DNA of 64,000 nucleotides from Mobula hypostoma (GCF_963921235.1 NC_086108.1:52392001-52456000); one strand, 5' to 3'. Positions 15,601-30,600 are shown, numbered from the stretch's first letter. Notes: generated by a model not told the origin, from the letters alone. Numbers and translations: made by a program.

Positions 15601-18600
15601 ATGGTTCAGGGTTAATTTGTTTATTCTCAAGTTGCAGAACATTTGCTAGCAAAATTCCAGGAAACTTTAAATGCCACTCTTCTTAACCCAGACCCAATGC
15701 AACGGCTGTGTTTGCGTAGTTTATTGTCTCATGCATTTTTCAGGTAAGTATTTTTGCACAGCACTCCTTTTAATTTATTTGTTAATTAAAGCAGAAAATA
15801 ATTAGAAAATAAGTTAACTTCATGTACTATTTAAAATCGAAGTGGAAAGTTGATTCATAAATATATGAGTTGTCTACTGTGCTTGTCCAGTAGATTAGTC
15901 AGGATTACTGCCATACATTTTGCAACGGCGGCGGGGGGGGGGGGGAAGATAGCAGAATATATGCAAATAGTGCAAACTTTAATACAATCACAGAAATTTA
16001 TTGGTTGTACAAAGGCAAAATACGATTGTGTTCATTATAATCCAGATGGTGTATTTTAACTGCATTATCTCGAAAAGAACAAAGTAAACCATGTCAAAAT
16101 AATTCATAAAGCTTACAATGATTACACTGGATAGCAAATTTTTTCAGAAGTTTTGCTTCCTCAGAAATATTTTGTGGTTATGATACACTACTTGAAGCTG
16201 AACACAAATTTAATTTCAGACTACATGTAGGAATTTAGAGAAACAAGAAATTAACTTTTATTGAATATCTCTCTTCATGTGCCTTGCGCATTACACGCTT
16301 GGGCGATCATGGCTTTCCACATCGAACGATCCCACGCAGCACCAATGATATCTCGCACACTTAGATCTTTTAGTTCTTTCACAGTGTCCACATATTTTGT
16401 TCTTTGCCTTCCTCTTCTGCGTTTCCCAGGCATACGGCCTTGTAATGTAAGGCATTCTATTTCTCCCTTTCTGATGACATGGCCCAGGAATTTAAGTTTC
16501 CTCTCATTTAATGTTCTCATTAAAGATCTTTTTGTATGGGCAGGTTGGAGTACTGTCTCATTAGTTACCCTATCTCTATATATTTTCAGCATTCTTCTAA
16601 GAAACCATATTTCTGTTGCTTCTAAGTTTCTTTGGAGTTCTGGTGTTACAGTCCATGTTTCGGAAGCATACAGCAAAATTGACCAGATGTAACGTTTTAG
16701 TAGCCTAAGCCTTGTCATAGAAGTGTGTCTGCTGGTAAAAATGGGTTTCATTTTTTGAAAGTTAGTTTTGGCAATGGCAATTCTTTTTTTTTAATTTCTA
16801 CTTTACTTCTAGCATCTTGTGATATAAAGCTACCAAGGTAATTAAGCTGATCTTTTGTTCAGTCTCTTGGTTACCAATGTACAATTGGCAGTTGGGAGTA
16901 TCCTGCTGTTTTGATCTTACCATGCATTTGGTTTTCTTGCAGTTGATGGTTAGACCAAAATCTGTACTTGTTTGTATTACTTTGTCTAGGAGGATTTCTA
17001 GGTCTTCTGCAGCACTTGCTATTAAGGTGGTATCGTCTGCATATTTATCCCATTTAGGTCTTCTATTTCTCTGAGAATCATTTCACTATAGATATTAAAT
17101 AATTCCGGTGAGGCAACGCATTCCTGTCTAACTCCTCTTTGAATTTTAGCCCAACTGCTTATATTATCATCAATTTTTACCACTGCCGTTTGGTTCCAAT
17201 ATAAATTTTGAAGCAGTTGTTTGTCCTTTCCATCAATGTTTAGTTTAGTGAGAATTTGAAATAATTTTTCATGTTGCATTTTGTCGAATGCTTTAGTGAA
17301 ATCAATAAAACATAAAAAGACATCATTTTGATATTCAGTTGGCCTTTCTGAAAATATTCGTAGTGTGAAAATTGCGTTCCTAGTTCCTCTATCCTCAATA
17401 AACCCATATTGCAGTTTAGAAGTTTCTGGCCTTAACTTGTTTTTAATTCGACTCAGAACAACTTTCAACAAAATCTTTATTATGTGACTCATAAGACTGA
17501 TTGTTCTATAGTTTTCACAGTCAATAGTTACAGGAATCATAAGCGGGCCGAGACTCCTGAAGACTGGTGGCAGATCAACTGATGATCCCACTGGTGATAG
17601 CACAGGACAGTTAACATCTTAGTCCAAATGTATTTTCAATTCTTTAGCTCTGGACACCAGTGACTAACAGGAATAGTCTAGTTGGCAACTGGAAATAGTC
17701 CAGTGACAGCGTGGAGAGACAGCGGACAGCCAGGAAAGACTGGCACTGAGGGTGTCAGGATTGGCAATCCGGGCACCAGCTCAGAAGAGCACCAACCCCT
17801 TGAAGCTTCTAGTTTACATGGAGAAACATACCCTCAGGGTCCTCCAAGAGGGAGGGAGAATGATGGACCCAATCGGACAGATACAGTTAATTACAGGGAA
17901 CGACTACGAACAAGAGCTAGGGTAAGAGGCTCTGAGTGTCCAATGTGTTGGTGTGGGAGAGCGTTTTCCAGCATTAAAGGTTTACGAGTCCACCAAGCAA
18001 AATTGAAGTGCTATTCCACCCCAGTGGATGAAGATGAAATTACTTCACCAAGCACAGATGATGTGATCTTTTCAACCACTGAATCACAAACCACAGCGAT
18101 TCGCTCTGGAGAGAGTCATCGTACTCCAGCTCAGACGAGAGATAACCCAGGTCAGGTTTCAGACCACAGTACCCAGGTAGATTCTTCGCATGATGGCGGT
18201 GGTGAGGAGGTAGAGAAGAAGAGGAAGGTCAAGTGGCCAACAATGCAACAATGACTGATGAGAAGGCTTGGCGTGTGTTTGATGAGGATATCAGTATGAT
18301 GTTGGAGAACACTCTCGTGGGAACATCAAAGAGAAAGTTGGAAGGGATGGGTGATATGATTTACGATGTTGGAAAGTACCAGTTTGGTTTGGTTGAGTTG
18401 AAGAAAGCATAGCCTACACAGACACCAAGCAGGCGCCAGAAGGAGATTAGTAGGTTGAGGAGAGAGCTTAGATCATTGAGACAGAGGTGGAAGGTAGCAA
18501 GTGAGGGTGACAAACCAGGGCTTGCCGATCTCCGAGAGCATTTTCTGCATCACTCTGTCGTGCAGAGTCACAACGTAAAAAGAGAAAGAAGGCAAGAAAG

Positions 18601-21600
18601 TCGTTCTTTGAGAACCCTCAACAGTTCACAAAGAAATTGTTTGAACAAAGTAAGAGCGGGCAGCTTAACATCTCTCAACAAGAACTTGAGGATCACCTGG
18701 CAAGCACTTACTCTAACGAACAGCAGGAGGCTCCTTTGCTTGACATTTCAGGGCTTGTGAAGCCTACCAAGCCAGGAGTGAAGCTCGATCTGTTAGAACC
18801 CAAACTGGCAGAAGTCGAACGGTTCATCAGAAAGGCAAGGTCAGGTTCAGTGCCAGGACTTAATGGAGTGCCATATAAGGTGTTCAAGAAGTGTGAGCAG
18901 CTGAGGAAATACTTGTGGAGATTGTTAAAGGTGGTGTGGAGACAAGGTGTTGTTCCTTTGTCATGGAGTGAGGCTGAAGGAGTATACATCCCAAAGGAAG
19001 AGAATTCTACTACATTGAATCAATTCTGACCAATTTCACTCCTGAATGTAGGGGGGGAGATTATGTTTGGCATTCTAGCAGAAAGAATATCTTCATTTGT
19101 GATAGAAAATGATTTGGTAAATAGATCTGTGCAGAAGGCAGGAATACCAGGCTTCCCAGGATGCCTTGAACATACTAGTATGATAGGGCATACCATCCAG
19201 CAGTCGAAAAGGTTGAGAAGAAATCTGGCTGTAGTTTGGTTTGATCTTGCAAATGCATGTGGTCCTGTTCCCCATGCCCTGATTGAGTTTGCGATGGAAT
19301 TCCTATGGATTCCTGCTAATGTGAGGAACTTTGTTATGCAGTACTACAATGATTTCCGGATGAGGTTTTCCACTGAGCAGTTTACAACTAGGTGGCAGAG
19401 CTTGGATATTGGCATCCCAAGGGGATGTGCGATTTCACTCATCCTTTTTGTGTTAGCCATGGAGGTCGTTGTGAGGGCTGCAGAATCAGTGGGACCAGGT
19501 GTCGGAGGGGAGTTACCACCAATACGAGTATTCATGGACGATCTCACCCTTTTGGGTCCTAGCAAGAAGGTAGTAGAAAGTGTACTATCTAGACTCGAGG
19601 AGGTAATGGACTGGGGAAGAATGAAGTTCAAGACCAAGAAGTCAAGGAGCCTTATTCTTAGGAGAGGAAAGTGGTTGACTTTCATTTCACCTTTTGTGGA
19701 GAGGAGATTCCATCCATTCAGGACCAACCAGTTAAGAGCCTCGGGCGATGGTACACAGAGGAGCTGAGAGACACCAAGAGGGTTCAAGAGACAGGAGAAC
19801 AGTTCAGCAGAGGTCTGATGTCTGTTGACAAGTGTGGCTTGCCTAGCAAGTTGAAGTTGTGGTGCTTGCAGTACGGACTGATGCCACAGATAATGTGGCC
19901 ACTAACTGTCTATGAAGTGGCAATGTCCCATGTTGAGGCAATGGAACGGAAGATCAACAAGTATGTGAAGAAGTGGCTTGGAGTACTGAGCAGTCTCACC
20001 AATGTTGCAATCCACAGTAGCCAGACAAAGCTTACCATCCCAGTGCAATCCCTTGTTGAAGAGGTCAAGGTAGCCAAGGTAAGATCATTCTTGATGCTTC
20101 GAGACTCAAAAGACCCTGTCATCAAGAACACCCAGCCAGATGTGAGATCAGGCGGTAAGTGGTCAGCCCATGTAGCAGTTGATGAGGCAGAGTCTAGACT
20201 GAAGCACAAGGAGACGGTTGGGGCTACCCAGCTAGGCCGCCAGGGACTTGGATGGACAACCCACAAGTGGTGGTCATCAGTTGAGCAGAAAGTACTGCAG
20301 CACAACTTATCTCATGCCCCATGCTGCACAGAACATCACATATCATTTGTGAAAGAAGGCTCCAAGTCAAGGGTGTACAGCGCAAGCCCACGATCAAGCA
20401 TACTTTCTTCAGCCAATGATTGGTGTGTCAAGGCTGACCTGGGTAGCAAAGGCAGTTTCCCGGAGCAAATAGCTTTCACCACATTGTGCCCAGATATAAT
20501 CGTATGGTCTGACACCAGTAGAGAAGTGGTTATTGGTGAACTCACAGTCCCTGGGAAGACAACATCGATGAAGCCCATGAGCGCAAGTTAACCAAGTATG
20601 CAGAATTAAGATCAGAGTGCAGAGACAGAGGGTGGAAGGTCTCATGCTATCCATTCAAAGTAGGTTGCCACGGATTTATTGCGTTCACTTTCCAGAAGTG
20701 GCTGCGTGACCTTGACTTCACTAGAAGAGAGATCAAGTCAACAAGCAGGGCTGTAGCTGAGGCAGCAGAGACAGGATCATCATGGGTGTGGACCAAGTAT
20801 GTCCAGAGGGGCAGATAGTCAGACAGTGTATCCATCTTTTGCGAACCCTTCAGTAGTTGCATACACACCTGAAGAGTAGACTATCTGTTGGATGGAAGTG
20901 ACCAATAACTCTGATAAAGGCAGATGCCAAGTTTTTAAGCTCACCAGTGGGAGGTGGTGCTTTAGCACTGCTGGCCCACCACCTCGAGGGAGTCTTGATC
21001 ATAAGCGGGCCGAAACTCCTGAAGACAGGTGGCAGATCAACTGATGATACCACTGGTGATAGCACAGGACAGTTAACAACTTAGTCCAAGTGTATTTTCA
21101 ATTCTGCTGTTGACCTCCAGAGTACATTATCAGAGAACTATACTTAGTGAATTTGCCACTGTCGGTCCATCTAATTTCTGACAGGCCTAAGATATCAACT
21201 TCCAACCTTTTCATTTCATTTAATGTGTTGTCCAACTTTCCTTTCTGGTAAAGTGTACGTATGTTCTATGTTGCTACCCTTAGCCTTTCATTATTGCTTA
21301 CAGTCTCTGGATGATGGTCTGATGTCACCTGCAGCACATGACTACTCCTGAGCGAGGTGTTGTTCTGTTGATTAGAATCAACCCCATTCATGCTGTTGTC
21401 TGGCTTCCTTCTTTTGTTTCTTTCCATGACTGACTAGGCGTGCTCATCTAACTAGAGCATTTGACCTCTACTGGTGTTGCCAATTGGGAATCATAACCTA
21501 GATGTCGCCCAGCCTTTGCTGTTGCTGTACAAAGACAATCCTCCACCAAAGCCTGGAATCCATCTCCCTGCTGCTGGAGACTTCAGTGATTTTAGGTGAC

Positions 21601-24600: not shown

Positions 24601-27600
24601 GCTCACTACTGCCAGAAGACGATGCTGTAGTCTTGGGCGAGGTTTACTCAATGCAGTTTGTGGATTGGATTCTGTAGTTCACATTATGATGTGTTTCTGT
24701 TTGCTGCTATTTTGTTGCCATTTTGTGCGATTTTGATAGGGCAGCCTGCAGATAGCGAACGACACAGATTGAACTGAATGTGCCTTGGACTTTCTAGGTT
24801 GGTGTTTTATATTGTGTGTTTTTCGCTCATTTTTTATTTCTTGCCTATTGTGCGATTTGGGGTTTTTTGCGCTTGGGGAGATGGTTTGTTGACTGTCTTT
24901 GAATGGATTCCATGGTTTTCTTTGTTTTTGGCTGTCTGTGGGAAGACGAATTTCAGGGCTGTATACTGCATTCATACTTTGATAATAAATGTACTTTGAA
25001 TCTTCAATTTTTGACACTAATCCAGTTAATTAGGACAGTAGACTGTTGCCAAACAGTTTCTAACTTGTGTCATGAAAAGATTTAACAATAGCTGAAAAAA
25101 TTACCGTAGGTGCTTGCATCGATTTTGTTCATTTACAGTCAATCAAAAGAACATAGTGTACATTGAATGAATTTCACTGTTGATAACTATGATGAACACA
25201 TTTTTATAGTACTGTAGTAGTATTGGTGTTGTAATTTCTGAATTTCATTTAAGCAATGAATTGGGCCAAAATGTACTGGTCCCGCTGTGTCCTAGTTAAC
25301 CAGAATCCACTGTATTTCTCATTTCTGTTCTTGCTTAGCAGTTCTGTTAGACAACAGGCAGGAGTGGGAATCTTGATTTAACGAAAAAGTCTGAAATTAA
25401 TTGCACTATTCAAACAGTGGCTCTAACCCTTCACTGACCAAAGTGCAAACCAAAGCATTCATGATCTGAACACAACTGCCAGAGCATTTAGAACATAGAA
25501 CATAGAATAGTACAGCACAGTACAGGCCCTTCGTCCCACAATGTTGTGCCGACCCTTAAACCCTGCCTCCCATATAACCCCCTATCATAAATTCCTCCAT
25601 ATACCTGTCTAGTAGTCTCTTAAATTTCATTAATGTATCTGCCTCCTCCACTGACTCAGGCAGTGCATTCCATGCACCAATCACTCTCTTGAGTAAAAAA
25701 CCTTCCTCTAATATCTCCCTTGAACTTTCCAACCCTTACCTTAAAGCCATGTCCTCTTGTATTGAGCAGTGGTGCCCTGGGGAAGAGGCGCTGGCTGTCC
25801 ACTCTATCTATTCCTCGTAATATCTTGTATACCTCTATCATGTCTCCTCTCATCCTCCTCCTCTCCAAAGAGTAAAGCCCTAGCTCCCTTTATCTCTGAT
25901 CATAATGCATACTCTCTAAACCAGGTGGCATCCTGGTAAATCTCCTCTGTACCCTTTCCAATGCTTCCACATCCTTCCTATAGTGAGGCGACCAGAACTG
26001 GGCAGAGTGCTCCAAGTGTGGCCTAACCAGAGTTTTATAGAGCTCTTAAACTCTATCCCTCGACTTATGAAAGCTAACACCTTATAAGCATTTGTAAACT
26101 TACCAACCCACCCTTCTACCCCCACATCCAGGTCGTTAATAAAAATCACGAAAAGTAGAGGTCCCAGAATCGATCCTTGTGGGACACCACTAGTCACAAC
26201 CCTCCAATCTGAATGTACTCCCTCCACCATGACCCTCTGCTTTCTGCAGGCAAGCCAATCCTGAATCCACCTGGCCAAACTTCCCTGGATCCCATGCCTT
26301 CTGACTTTCTGAATAAGCCTACTGTGTGGAACCTTGTCAAATGCCTTACTAAAATCCATGTAGGTCACATCCACTGCACTACCCTCATCTATATGCCTGG
26401 TCACCTCCTCAAAGAATTCTATCAGGCTTGTTAGACATGATCTGCCCTTTACAAAGCCATGCTGACTGTCCCTGATCAGACCATGATTCTCTAAATGTCC
26501 ATAGATCCTATCTCTAAGAATCTTTTCCAATAGCTTTCCCACCACAGATGTAAGGCTCACTGGTCTGTAATTACCCGGACTATCCCTACTACCTTTTTTG
26601 AACAAGGGGACAACATTCGCCTCCCTCCAATCCTCTGGTACCATTCCCGTGGACAACGAGGACATCAAGATCCTAGCCAGAGGCTCAGCAATCTCTTCCC
26701 TTGCCTCGTGGAGCAGCCTGGGGCATATTCCGTCAGGCCCCAGGGAGTTATCCTTCCTAATGTATTTTAACAACTCCAACACCTCCTCTCCCTTAATATC
26801 AACATGCTCCAGAACATCAACCTCACTCATATTGTCCTCACCGTCATCAAGTTCCCTCTCATTGGTGAATACCAAAGAGGAGTATTCGTTGAGGACCTCG
26901 ATCACTTCCACAGCCTCCAGGCAGATCTTCCCACCTTTATCTCTAATTGGTCCTACCTTCACTCCTGTCATTCTTTTGTTCTTCACATAATTGAAGAATG
27001 CCTTGGGGTTTTCCTTTACCCTACTTGACAAGGCCTTCTCATGCCCCCTTTTTGCTCTCCTCAGCCCCTTCTTAGGCTCCTTTCTTGCTTCCCTATATTC
27101 TTCAATAGACCCATTTGATCCTTGCTTCCTAAACCTAAACCTCATGTATGCTACTGCCTTCCACCTGACTAGATTTTCCACTTCACTTGTCACCCATGGT
27201 TCCTTCACCCTACCATTCTTTATCTTCCTCACCGGGACAAATTTATCCCTAACATCCTGCGAGAGATCTCTAAACATCAACCACATGTCCATAGTACATT
27301 TCCCTGCCGAAACATCATCCCAATTCACACCCACAAGTTCTAGCCTTATAGCCTCATAATTTGCCCTTCTCCAATTAAAAATGTTCCTGTCCTCTCTGAT
27401 TCTATCCTTTTCCATAATAATGCTAAAGGCCAGGGAATGGTGGTCACTGTCCCCCAGATGCTCACCCACTGAGAGATCTGTGACCTGACCTGGTTCGTTA
27501 CGGAGGCATTAGCGGAGGCGTTGTGGAGGCATTAGCGATGATCTTTCAAAAGTTGATAGATTCTGGCATGGTTCCGGAAGACTGGAAGATTGCAAATGTC

Positions 27601-30600
27601 ACTCCACTATTTAAGAAGGAGACAAGGAAGCAAAAAGGAAATTATATACCTGTTAGCTTGACATCGGTGGTTGGGAAGTTGTTTGAGTCGATTGTCAAGG
27701 ATGAGGTTACAGAGTACCTGGAAGCATATGACAAGATAGGCAGAACTCAGCATGGATTCCTTCAAGGAAAATCCTGCCTGACAAACCTATTACAATTTTT
27801 TGATGAAATTACCAGTAGGCTAGACAAGGGAGATGCAGCGGGTGTTGTATATTTGGATTTTCAGAAGGCCTTTGACAAGGTGCCACACATGAGGCTGCTT
27901 AACAAGATAAGAGCCCATGGAATTACGGGAAAGTTACATACGTGGATAGAGCGTTGGCTGATTGGCAGGAAACAGAGAGTGGGAATAAAGGGATCCTATT
28001 CTGGTTGGCTGCCGGTTACCAGTGGTGTTCCACAGGGATCAGTGTTGGGGCCGCTTCTTTTTACATTGTACATCAACGATTTGGATTATGGAATAGATGG
28101 CTTTGTGGCTAAGTTTGCTGACGATACGAAGATAGGTGGAGGGGCCGGTAGTGCTGAGGAAACGGAGAGTCTGCAGAGAGACTTGGATAGATTGGAAGAA
28201 TGGGCAGAGAAGTGGCAAATGAAGTACAATGTTGGAAAGTGTATGGTTATGCACAGCAGAAAAAATAAACAGGCAGACTATTATTTAAATGGGGAAAGAA
28301 TTCAAAGTTCTGAGATGCAACGGGACTTGGGAGTCCTGGTACAGGATACCCTTAAAGTTAACCTCCAGGTTGAGTCAGTAGTGAAGAAGGCGAATGCAAT
28401 GTTGGCATTCATTTCAAGAGGAATAGAGTATAGGAGCAGGGATGTGATGTTGAGGGTCTATAAGGCGCTGGTGAGACCTCACTTGGAGTACTGTGGGCAG
28501 TTTTGGTCTCCTTATTTAAGAAAGGATGTGCTGACGTTGGAGAGGGTACAGAGAAGATTCACTAGAATGATTCCGGGAATGAGAGGGTTAACATATAAGG
28601 AACGTTTGTCCGCTGTTGGACTGTATTCCTTGGAGTTTAGAAGAATGAGGGGAGACCTCATAGAAACATTTCGAATGTTAAAAGGCATGGACAGAGTGGA
28701 TGTGGCAAAGTTGTTTCCCATGATGGGGGAGTCTAGTACGAGAGGGCGTGACTTAAGGATTGAAGGGCGCCCTTTCAGAACAGAAATGCGAAGAAATTTT
28801 TTTAGTCAGAGGGTGGTGAATCTATGGAATTTGTTGCCACGGGCAGCAGTGGAGGCCAAGTCATTGGATGTATTTAAGGCAGAGATTGATAGGTATCTGA
28901 GTAGCCAGGGCATCAAAGGTTATGGTGAGAAGGTGGGGGAGTGGGACTAAATGGGAGAATGGATCAGCTCATGATAAAATGGCGGAGCAGACTCGATGGG
29001 CCGAATGGCCTACTTCTGCTCCTTTGTCTTATGGTTACTTAATACTAGATCTAGTATGGCATTCCCCCTTGTCGGCCTGTCAACATACTGTGACAGGAAT
29101 CCGTCCTGGACCCACTTAACAAACTCTGCCCCATCTAAACCATTGGAACTAATCAGGTGCCAATCAATATTAGGGAAGTTAAAGTCACCCATGATAACAA
29201 CCCTTTTATTTTTGCACCTTTCCAAAATCTGCCTCCCAATCTACTCCTCGGTATCTCTGCTGCTACCAGGGGGCCTATAGAATGTCCCAATAGAGTAACT
29301 GCTCCCTTCCTGTTCCTGACTTCCACCCATACTGACTCAAAAGAGGATCCTGCTACATTACCCACCCTTTCTGTAGCTGTAATAGTATCCCTGACCAGTA
29401 ATGCCACCCCTCCTCCCCTTCCCCCCCCCATCCCTTTTAAAGCACTGCAATCCAGGAATATTGAGAATCCATTCCTGCCCTGGTGCCAGCCAAGTCTCCG
29501 TAATGGCCACTACATCATAATTCCATGTATGTATCCAAGCTCTCAGTTCATCACCTTTGTTCCTGATGCTTCTTGCATTGAAGTACACGCACTTTAGCCC
29601 TTCTACCTTACTACCTTTACACCCTTTATTCTGCTTCTCTTTCCTCAAAGCCTCTTTATATGTTAGATCTGGCTTTACTCTATGCACTTCTAACACTGCT
29701 CTATCGCTCTGGGTCCCATCCCCCTTGTAAATTAGTTTAAACCCTCCCGAACCATGCTAGCAAACCTACCTGCAAGGATATTGCTCCCCCTCGAGTTCAG
29801 GTGTAACCCATCCAATCTGTACAGGTCCCACCTTCCCCAGAAGAGATCCCAATGATCCAAAAATCTAAAACTGCCCCCCTGCAACAAGTCCTCAGCCACG
29901 CATTCAACTGCCATCTCCTCCAATTCTTACCATCACTATCACGTAGCATTGGCAGCAATCCTGAGAACGCCACCCTTGAGGTCTTGTTCTTCAGCTTTCT
30001 GCCTAGTTCCCGAAACTCACACTTCAGGACCTCTTCCCTCTTCCTGCCTATGTCGTTGGTACCAACATGTATCACGATATCTGGTTGCTTTCCCTCTCGT
30101 ACCAGGATGTTGTGCACCCGGTCAGAGACATCCCGGACTGGCACCCAGGAGGCAACAAACTATGCGGGTGTCCTTCAGGCTCCAGGACGGTATACTTATT
30201 ATTCACGGGAATGGCTACAGGAGTGCTCTGCACTACCTGTCTACTCACCTTTGCCTTCCCCCCCCCCCCCCACCAACTGTCACCCAACAACCTGCTTCCA
30301 GCATCCTAGGCATGACTACCTCCCTGTAGCTTTCATCTATGACTGCCTCGTTCTCCCTTATGAGTCAAAGGTCAACCAGCTGCTGCTCCAGATTCCTTAC
30401 ACGGTCTTCCATATCGCCCAGCCGTATGCACTTCTGGCGGATGTGACTCTGCAGGAGAGGGGAGTTCCCCCAAGACTGCCACATCTCACATGAGAGGCAC
30501 ATCACCGTCTCAGGAAGCATTGTAAAACCTAACTGGGAGCAAGCTTGTCCTCCACCTCTTCTCGTCAAAGCCTTTCGAATCAAAGCCGCAAAGCTCCACT

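Follow-up and report, generated by a model that had tools for sequence, protein, structure and literature searches.

Is the hammerhead-like motif near the 3′ end of a retrotransposon in Mobula hypostoma a ribozyme and, if it is, does its cleavage fix the 5′ ends of new insertions, or does it serve the element in some other way? The locus lies in a window of 64,000 nucleotides (GCF_963921235.1 NC_086108.1:52392001-52456000), the whole stretch of DNA that was analysed, and all positions below are counted from its first letter. The reading that we prefer, with a probability of roughly 0.58, is that a conserved hammerhead fold, the 5′ strand of whose stem II lies upstream of the cut site, would self-cleave to give unit-length RNAs that are circularised and then copied beyond a single round; towards the circle step, taken separately, we lean only slightly.

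The host of the motif is a decayed non-LTR retrotransposon of the type that encodes a restriction-like endonuclease (RLE), with these parts:

17536..21105, + strand: one decayed copy of the RLE-type, HERO-like element, more than one unit long (108 nt of 3′ end, a fixed junction, then a whole unit)
17536..17643, + strand: 5′ partial repeat of the element's 3′ end, with blocks G and C and the tail only, and with GAGA replacing GAAA
17682..18254, + strand: N-terminal piece of the ORF, with a weak C2H2 zinc-finger match (E 0.05, under the Pfam cut-off)
19030..19767, + strand: reverse transcriptase piece (PF00078, E 1.6e-10)
19662..20591, + strand: thumb and restriction-like endonuclease piece (PD...E motif from the translation; longer homologues at most 76% identical)

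The ORF of this copy is interrupted by stops and frameshifts, and some 378 bp carried by other copies are missing at 20278/20279. The element encodes a single ORF with a weak C2H2 finger (E 0.05), a reverse transcriptase and an RLE-type C-terminus, the RLE being recognised by its motif. Longer homologues of the protein reach 76% identity, those with names come from Branchiostoma, Astyanax, Leuciscus, Mobula and Diadema, and the '_BF' in the names of HERO elements presumably stands for Branchiostoma, the genus of some of these homologues. The family is abundant in the M. hypostoma genome (at first look, 1687 candidates matched the 3′ end and 262 the 5′ body, and 40 of each were scored); no consistent target-site duplication was found in 40 copies, whose flanks are unrelated to each other. 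A single ORF with an N-terminal zinc finger (weak in our element), a reverse transcriptase and a C-terminal RLE, with no target-site specificity evident, are traits of the HERO clade, which has been described as having this single-ORF architecture and as mostly lacking target specificity (PMC4640811, PMC7650587). We provisionally regard the element as a putative member of that clade, in view of the Branchiostoma homologues and of the description in PMC4640811. Reverse transcriptase fragments of unrelated LINEs lie elsewhere in the window, at 17022-17618 (−), 25916-27508 (−) and 27484-28950 (+), the element being inserted beside the first of them, and some copies elsewhere (L145, L150, L152, L154, L164 and L165) have large internal deletions with both ends kept.

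The motif itself sits in the 3′ UTR, 3′ of the ORF, and comprises the following parts:

20941..20952, + strand: 5′ strand of P0, a clamp helix pairing with the bases immediately after A9
20953..20972, + strand: P1 hairpin, which abuts P0 and G10.1
20973..20977, + strand: 5′ strand of stem II (G10.1 = 20973), upstream of the cut site
20979..20984, + strand: 5′ strand of P4 (CCACCU), a helix bridging stems I and II
20988..21000, + strand: block S, with a stem III strand, U16.1 (20993), C17 (20994) and a stem I strand (20995-21000)
21001..21006, + strand: linker after block S
21007..21020, + strand: block G, with the 3′ strand of stem II (21007-21011), G12-A13-A14 (21012-21014) and a stem III strand (21015-21020)
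21027..21032, + strand: 3′ strand of P4 (AGGUGG)
21035..21047, + strand: stem I strand (21035-21040) and core C3-A9 (CUGAUGA, 21041-21047)
21048..21059, + strand: 3′ strand of P0, in which a change at 21049 is private to the window copy
21067..21105, + strand: 3′ tail, in which a small hairpin (21067-21087) precedes the unit end

Along the RNA, P0, P1 and the 5′ strand of stem II are followed by P4, by the stem III strand with NUH and a stem I strand, by the 3′ strand of stem II with GAAA and the other stem III strand, by P4′, by the second stem I strand with CUGAnGA, and finally by P0′. This block order, S-G-C, is not a circular permutation of types I, II and III, and A9 continues into P0, not into stem II. 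By analogy with known hammerheads the cut is predicted between 20994 and 20995 (after C20994); reverse transcription would start at the unit end in the 3′ tail (21105), and P4 may be the equivalent of helix 'I' of type SGC. Part of this arrangement had been recognised in an earlier note: its strands A (20988-21000) and B (21007-21020), its linker (21001-21006) and its CUGAUGA (21041-21047) are present in the sequence, stems I and III do have 6 bp each (stem III including one G-U pair), and its additional helix CCACCU/AGGUGG joins 20979-20984 with 21027-21032, while the upstream stem II strand (20973-20977), the helix 20941-20952/21048-21059 and the hairpin 20953-20972 escaped it.

A pattern that includes stems I and III occurs once in the 64-kb window (both strands) and in none of 20 shuffled windows. 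Rfam hammerhead models gave no match at E ≤5 between 12000 and 24000 of the window, and none at the gathering score in 20 related loci. Minimum free energy (MFE) folding never brought the pseudoknotted helices all together, and MFE is not counted as evidence. CUGAnGA-like words at about 20912 and 21019 were tried as block C and rejected: the former has no stem I partner by inspection, and it is only at 21041 that relatives show conservation. An ordinary type II hammerhead, formed by mixed folding of the 5′ copy with the 3′ copy, was ruled out, its adjacent stem II being unpaired.

How well is the fold maintained beyond this one copy? Metagenomic relatives were clustered at 80% into 18 families, which with the window make 19. 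The search required GAAA, [C/U]UGAN[G/A]A, U16.1 and a minimum stem score, so that conservation of the core letters is partly built in by the pattern; H17, N7, the identity of pair 3-8 and the stems were free. Over the 19 families, 93 of 95 cells are paired in stem III (0.72 when strands are combined across families) and 94 of 95 in stem I (0.54 across families). In a MAFFT alignment that is blind to structure, stem III is 97.9% paired and stem I 98.9%, and none of 500 shuffles matches the whole-structure paired percentage or the covariation score, a comparison to be read with the caveat that related sequences can outscore this tool's shuffles. The examination of core and covariation that the earlier note had proposed for the family and its relatives thus bears out a hammerhead-type core in the order that it called A-B-C (S-G-C here), conserved and covarying among the 19 families, with both sides changing in nine of the ten pairs of stems I and III.

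The same comparison does not uphold stem II as the note had drawn it, between the bases after CUGAUGA and those before GAAA: this helix is paired in 29 of 74 cells, which is the cross-family level (0.37), and on the MAFFT alignment its first two pairs form in 23.7% of cells. The bases before GAAA pair with an upstream strand, 19-25 nt 5′ of U16.1, in 92 of 95 cells (0.59 cross-family), with at least three pair types at four of the five positions, and a local shuffle is beaten at p<0.05 in 13 of the 19 families. Nor is the A-B-C order new, since it is that of type SGC (Eckert et al., 2023, PMC10085705). Might the motif then be a plain type SGC hammerhead, with stem II adjoining CUGAUGA and with a cut that fixes the 5′ ends of insertions in the manner of the HDV-like ribozymes of R2? 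The block order is right for this, and the window copy begins 3 nt past the predicted cut, but the intact block C of type SGC is precluded by the first adjacent pair, which is impossible in 17 of 19 families, and only one of 56 copies starts at the cut (see below), so that we consider this explanation very improbable indeed.

In place of an adjoining stem II, the bases after A9 form P0, which has a mean stability of −17.1 kcal/mol with its own strand vs −8.0 cross-family in 18 families, although own P0 is stronger than every foreign strand in only 11 of them; for P4 the means are −13.0 (own) and −7.1 (cross-family). The gaps among P0, P1 and G10.1 are 0/0/0 in 10 of 18 families and no more than 1 nt each in 15 of 18 (the automatic fit of P0 and P1 was unsuccessful in two of the 18, and L097 was omitted as a truncated sequence). 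Because the gaps are zero, we predict, as a structural model, a stacked four-way junction at A9/G10.1, in which P0 would be stacked on P1, and stem II on the G12-A9 and A13-G8 pairs. Known hammerheads tolerate one additional base between 9 and 10.1 (PMC4209133); no known hammerhead with a helix branching at A9/G10.1 was found in the literature searched, and activity here is to that extent extrapolated. An out-of-sample search of prokaryote bins with a sequence-only pattern gave 41 matches, of which two exceeded the stem I threshold and a third fell just below it, and the entire fold is present in all three. Contigs L237, L247 and L255, which carry the whole fold and are 75-84% like the L062/L078 family, are short contigs of bacterial bins near telomere-like repeats, and are possibly host DNA with non-autonomous partners: no ORF was detected beside the fold in any of them, and a search with one protein query found no related ORF in the bins behind L237 and L255. 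Viral contigs yielded neither a relative nor a pattern match.

Does such a fold cleave, or does it merely resemble a hammerhead? At the positions left free by the search, H17 is A in eight families, C in seven, U in four and G in none, all four bases occur at N7 (U in 11, C in three, A in three, G in two), and pair 3-8 is CG in 17 families, UA in one (L067) and UG in one; covariation between C3-G8 and U3-A8 is known in active natural hammerheads (PMC3088659). Pair 10.1-11.1 is G-C in 17 of the 19 families, and pair 15.2-16.2 is GC in 16 and AU in three. The pattern at H17, N7 and 3-8, taken with G10.1-C11.1, points to catalytic constraints and argues against a non-catalytic fold, and we judge from these sequence comparisons that the motif is quite probably a catalytic hammerhead. 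We think it unlikely that the fold is instead a non-catalytic structure by which the element's protein recognises its RNA. The location in the 3′ UTR would suit such a role, since this is where RLE proteins bind RNA (the binding of an RLE protein to the 3′ UTR of its own RNA is established for R2), as would the occupation of the strand after CUGAnGA by another helix. However, stem II is supplied by the upstream strand, with G10.1-C11.1 kept in 17 of 19 families; H17 varies without ever being G, N7 is unconstrained and pair 3-8 covaries; and a better candidate for a priming signal exists in a separate small hairpin nearer the 3′ end, seen by eye with a similar loop in four families, close to the unit end and at a variable distance past the motif (window 21067-21087, L062, L067 and L110), which is itself a candidate protein-binding or priming signal.

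Among metagenome contigs, 80 of 142 relatives were kept in the scan, and 49 of these reach the end of the ORF. The motif is carried by 29 of the 49; eight more end too early, four have a degenerate motif, and eight are without sign of it by inspection, so that the motif is evidently not indispensable. A quick version of the tree, made without the overly short L082 and L134, shows that the motif spans the whole clade, including the deepest branches, and is absent from five members (L061, L108, L075, L076 and L101, which are five of the eight without the motif) and from a distant outgroup. These five may use another processing element; no Rfam matches were found in the four of them tested. Head-to-tail joints occur in seven relatives within the clade, two of which (L064 and L079) assemble as circles, and five (L067, L071, L095, L096 and L112) carry the ORF start downstream of the 3′ UTR. 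Such a structure is not confined to motif carriers, since L137 and L139, which with L136 belong to a distant RLE lineage (28% identity) without the motif, likewise assemble as circles.

Several other features may be recorded here. In four runs presumed to be RNA, contig depth is some 10 times higher over the motif; these data consist of contigs only and show no molecule ends. Purine-rich short repeats just past the head-to-tail junction (about 17650-17770 in the window, and conserved in the distant families of L067, L069, L071, L112 and L113) are candidates for a promoter or translation element. A tRNA-like stretch with an A-box and a B-box lies 5′ of the motif in the 3′ UTR of L069, L085, L087, L112 and L122 (in L105 with the B-box only), and might act as a polymerase III promoter; in 10 loci with tRNA-like stretches, ARAGORN detected no tRNA.

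If the motif cleaves, where should copies in the genome begin? The earlier note had inferred that cleavage defines the 5′ ends of insertions, as in R2, and the window copy is as it described, the 5′ member of the repeat pair 17536-17643/20998-21105 (108 nt, 95% identity) beginning 3 nt past the predicted cut, with GAGA for GAAA. The rest of the family does not follow this rule. Among 64 copies with 5′ body, seven end before the junction, one shares its flank with another copy, and 56 span the junction, overshooting it by 2-1690 nt (10 by 2-46, 16 by 47-111, two by 112-166, 10 by 167-300 and 18 by more). The window copy is the only one of the 56 with its 5′ end within 5 nt of the cut; 30 read through the cut site seamlessly, and in 28 the overshoot (at least 166 nt) covers the whole motif. 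What survives of the claim is a weak remnant: there is no clustering of 5′ ends at the cut, but beyond a change point at 97 nt (range 73-129, with the cut at 111) they occur at a rate about 2.3-fold lower, a drop matched in strength by 35 of 1000 simulations and explained equally well by pausing of the reverse transcriptase in structure. In six of the 56 copies the 5′ end falls on the CUGAUGA core itself (63-66 nt from the unit end), which is possibly a reverse transcriptase stop. The seven copies that end just before the junction (L223, L224, L227, L229, L230, L232 and L233) belong to a set of 14, 11 of which were first found with a query starting 40 nt into the body; they show that 5′ ends are dense on either side of the junction.

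The junction and the repeats that flank the unit say more about the template. Junction spacing is constant among the copies that reach it, from which we infer that the junction is templated and that priming at the unit end takes place inside a continuous RNA; the exact junction pattern had no match in the element's own genome. Of the variants private to a single 3′ repeat, scored over 12,230 non-CpG sites in 41 copies, 17 are found again in the 5′ repeat of the same copy and 115 are not, where about 1.3 recurrences are expected. Shared minor alleles agree in 26 of 55 cases and differ in 29 (8.7 agreements expected), and the junction variant classes of a copy's two repeats agree in 31 of 40 copies and differ in nine, where about 14 agreements would be expected from the margins (four were unclassified). 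This concordance indicates that the duplication has been regenerated repeatedly, either not always from one template or with mutation or conversion blurring the signal. The discordance (29 of 55 alleles, nine of 40 junction classes) exceeds what a single circular template predicts, barring recurrent mutation or template switching, and gene conversion after insertion could be a source of the shared private variants.

The fall in 5′ ends near the cut (16 copies at 47-111 nt vs two at 112-166, with 35 of 1000 simulations as strong) and the discordant repeats of some copies both speak for an alternative in which the ribozyme is active and the template linear. Only the 5′ copy of the motif would be cut, leaving a terminal redundancy of about 110 nt, and the reverse transcriptase would jump, guided by homology, to the 3′ repeat of that RNA or of a different one, in the manner of retroviral strand transfer; transfer between RNAs would yield just such discordance. 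Against this, all core letters are present in 37 of 54 3′ copies in the M. hypostoma genome, and cleavage at a complete 3′ motif would remove the priming tail; moreover, ends do not pile up at the cut (one of 56), and the copies that cross the cut site have no recurrent duplication or scar there. We think this reading rather unlikely, though less so than the other rivals of the preferred one. The seamless crossing of the cut site could also mean a ribozyme that works slowly or is off most of the time. The template would then be uncut transcripts, multimeric or reading through from tandem source loci, and would be primed internally, as was shown in vitro for PAc, a Penelope element (PMC11167929); type SGC ribozymes are indeed slow (0.007-0.19 per min; PMC10085705). 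There is, however, no full dimer among 39 mapped copies, and the longest overshoot among 64 is 1690 nt; linear inheritance alone would, besides, erode the 5′ repeat and let the repeats diverge, yet private and subfamily variants are common to both. To this explanation we give little credence.

How, on the preferred reading of a self-cleaving fold and a circular template, might the cycle run? A copy that overshoots the whole motif would be transcribed into an RNA with two ribozymes, cleavage at both of which would free a cut-to-cut monomer. The ends of the monomer would re-pair via P0, II, P4 and III (about 28 bp), juxtaposing the 5′-OH and the cyclic phosphate, and could be sealed by self-ligation or by RtcB to give a circle; the element's protein would then prime internally at the tail and copy past the junction until it falls off, so rebuilding the two-ribozyme arrangement. 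The split topology suits such a model because the monomer ends re-pair through these four helices, and copying a circle for more than one unit is a likely explanation of why full-length copies exceed one unit. Fifteen copies have intact cores in both repeats. A two-ribozyme circle model was put forward earlier for Penelope elements (PMC4209133), and circles have been demonstrated for retrozymes (PMC7229834), while hammerhead mutants of a Penelope element are unaffected in insertion in vitro (PMC11167929). DNA alone cannot fully separate the circle model from its rivals. In assembled contigs, the joint of such a circle would look identical to genomic sequence. For the whole combination (a block C split by a perfect four-way junction at A9/G10.1, outside the six block permutations and spread through a deep clade of autonomous RLE LINEs, acting as a cut-and-reseal clamp to produce a protein-coding circular RNA template of about 4 kb for more-than-unit target-primed reverse transcription) we would offer even odds.

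If the motif does cleave, the working assumption that CUGAnGA is contiguous with stem II would be broken, which would account for its being missed by Rfam models and by pattern searches built on the same assumption, and would imply further hidden hammerheads in eukaryote genomes; non-circularly permuted hammerheads would also be extended from metatranscriptome RNAs to a high-copy genomic element. A circular template would give a testable mechanism by which a LINE of the RLE type, having no LTRs, could preserve its ends and regenerate head-to-tail copies, and a clamp that grips both cleavage products by four helices would be of interest for RNA circularisation tools.

As regards precedent, the S-G-C order is known, and the splitting of block C appears undescribed in the literature searched. 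No description of a ribozyme or of more-than-unit structure in HERO was found, and full-text literature yielded no hammerhead in HERO or RLE elements and no branch at A9/G10.1 (subscription journals and Repbase Reports being thinly covered, so that a prior description is possible); passages of Forgia 2023 (PMC10162972) and of PMC544870 contain nothing on such a branch, and the supplement of Eckert et al. (PMC10085705) makes no mention of HERO. Hammerhead variants that have extra helices are mentioned in a paper of 2026 (PMC13725137).

The closest known system is type SGC (HRIMA-1 and a variant; Eckert et al., 2023, PMC10085705), which shares with the HERO-like motif the order S, G and then CUGAnGA, the same core letters, a short linker between stems I and II, and a helix linking the far sides of these stems (P4 here). 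In type SGC, however, the stem II strand follows CUGAnGA, interruption of block C being assumed to be at most 1-2 nt, whereas in the HERO-like motif that strand lies 5′ of the cut, with P0 and P1 between A9 and G10.1; and whereas Eckert et al. report no such RNA in known organisms' genomes, with one GCS candidate as the exception, the present motif resides in a high-copy genomic retrotransposon family. Penelope-like elements (Cervera and de la Pena 2014, PMC4209133; Frangieh 2024, PMC11167929) likewise combine a terminal-repeat ribozyme with an autonomous retroelement, head-to-tail partial tandems, internal priming and a tolerated extra base at 9/10.1, but theirs are minimal type I motifs, thought to be dimeric, in elements with a GIY-YIG endonuclease, whereas the fold in our RLE-type LINE has full stems, is pseudoknotted and is predicted to act as a monomer. 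Hammerheads also make the cut-to-cut monomers and circles of metazoan non-LTR retrozymes (Cervera and de la Pena 2020, PMC7229834), with ligation by RtcB in vitro, products that would have their counterparts in the HERO-like element; these retrozymes are non-coding, type I and 150-450 bp long, whereas the HERO-like unit, of about 3.8 kb, encodes its own reverse transcriptase and endonuclease. The HDV-like ribozymes of R2, L1Tc and RTE (PMC6765202), finally, resemble the predicted ribozyme in serving a non-LTR retrotransposon by self-cleavage, but they are of a different class and act in the 5′ UTR to release the element from a co-transcript, whereas the HERO-like motif lies 3′ of the ORF and the 5′ ends of its copies lie away from the cut.
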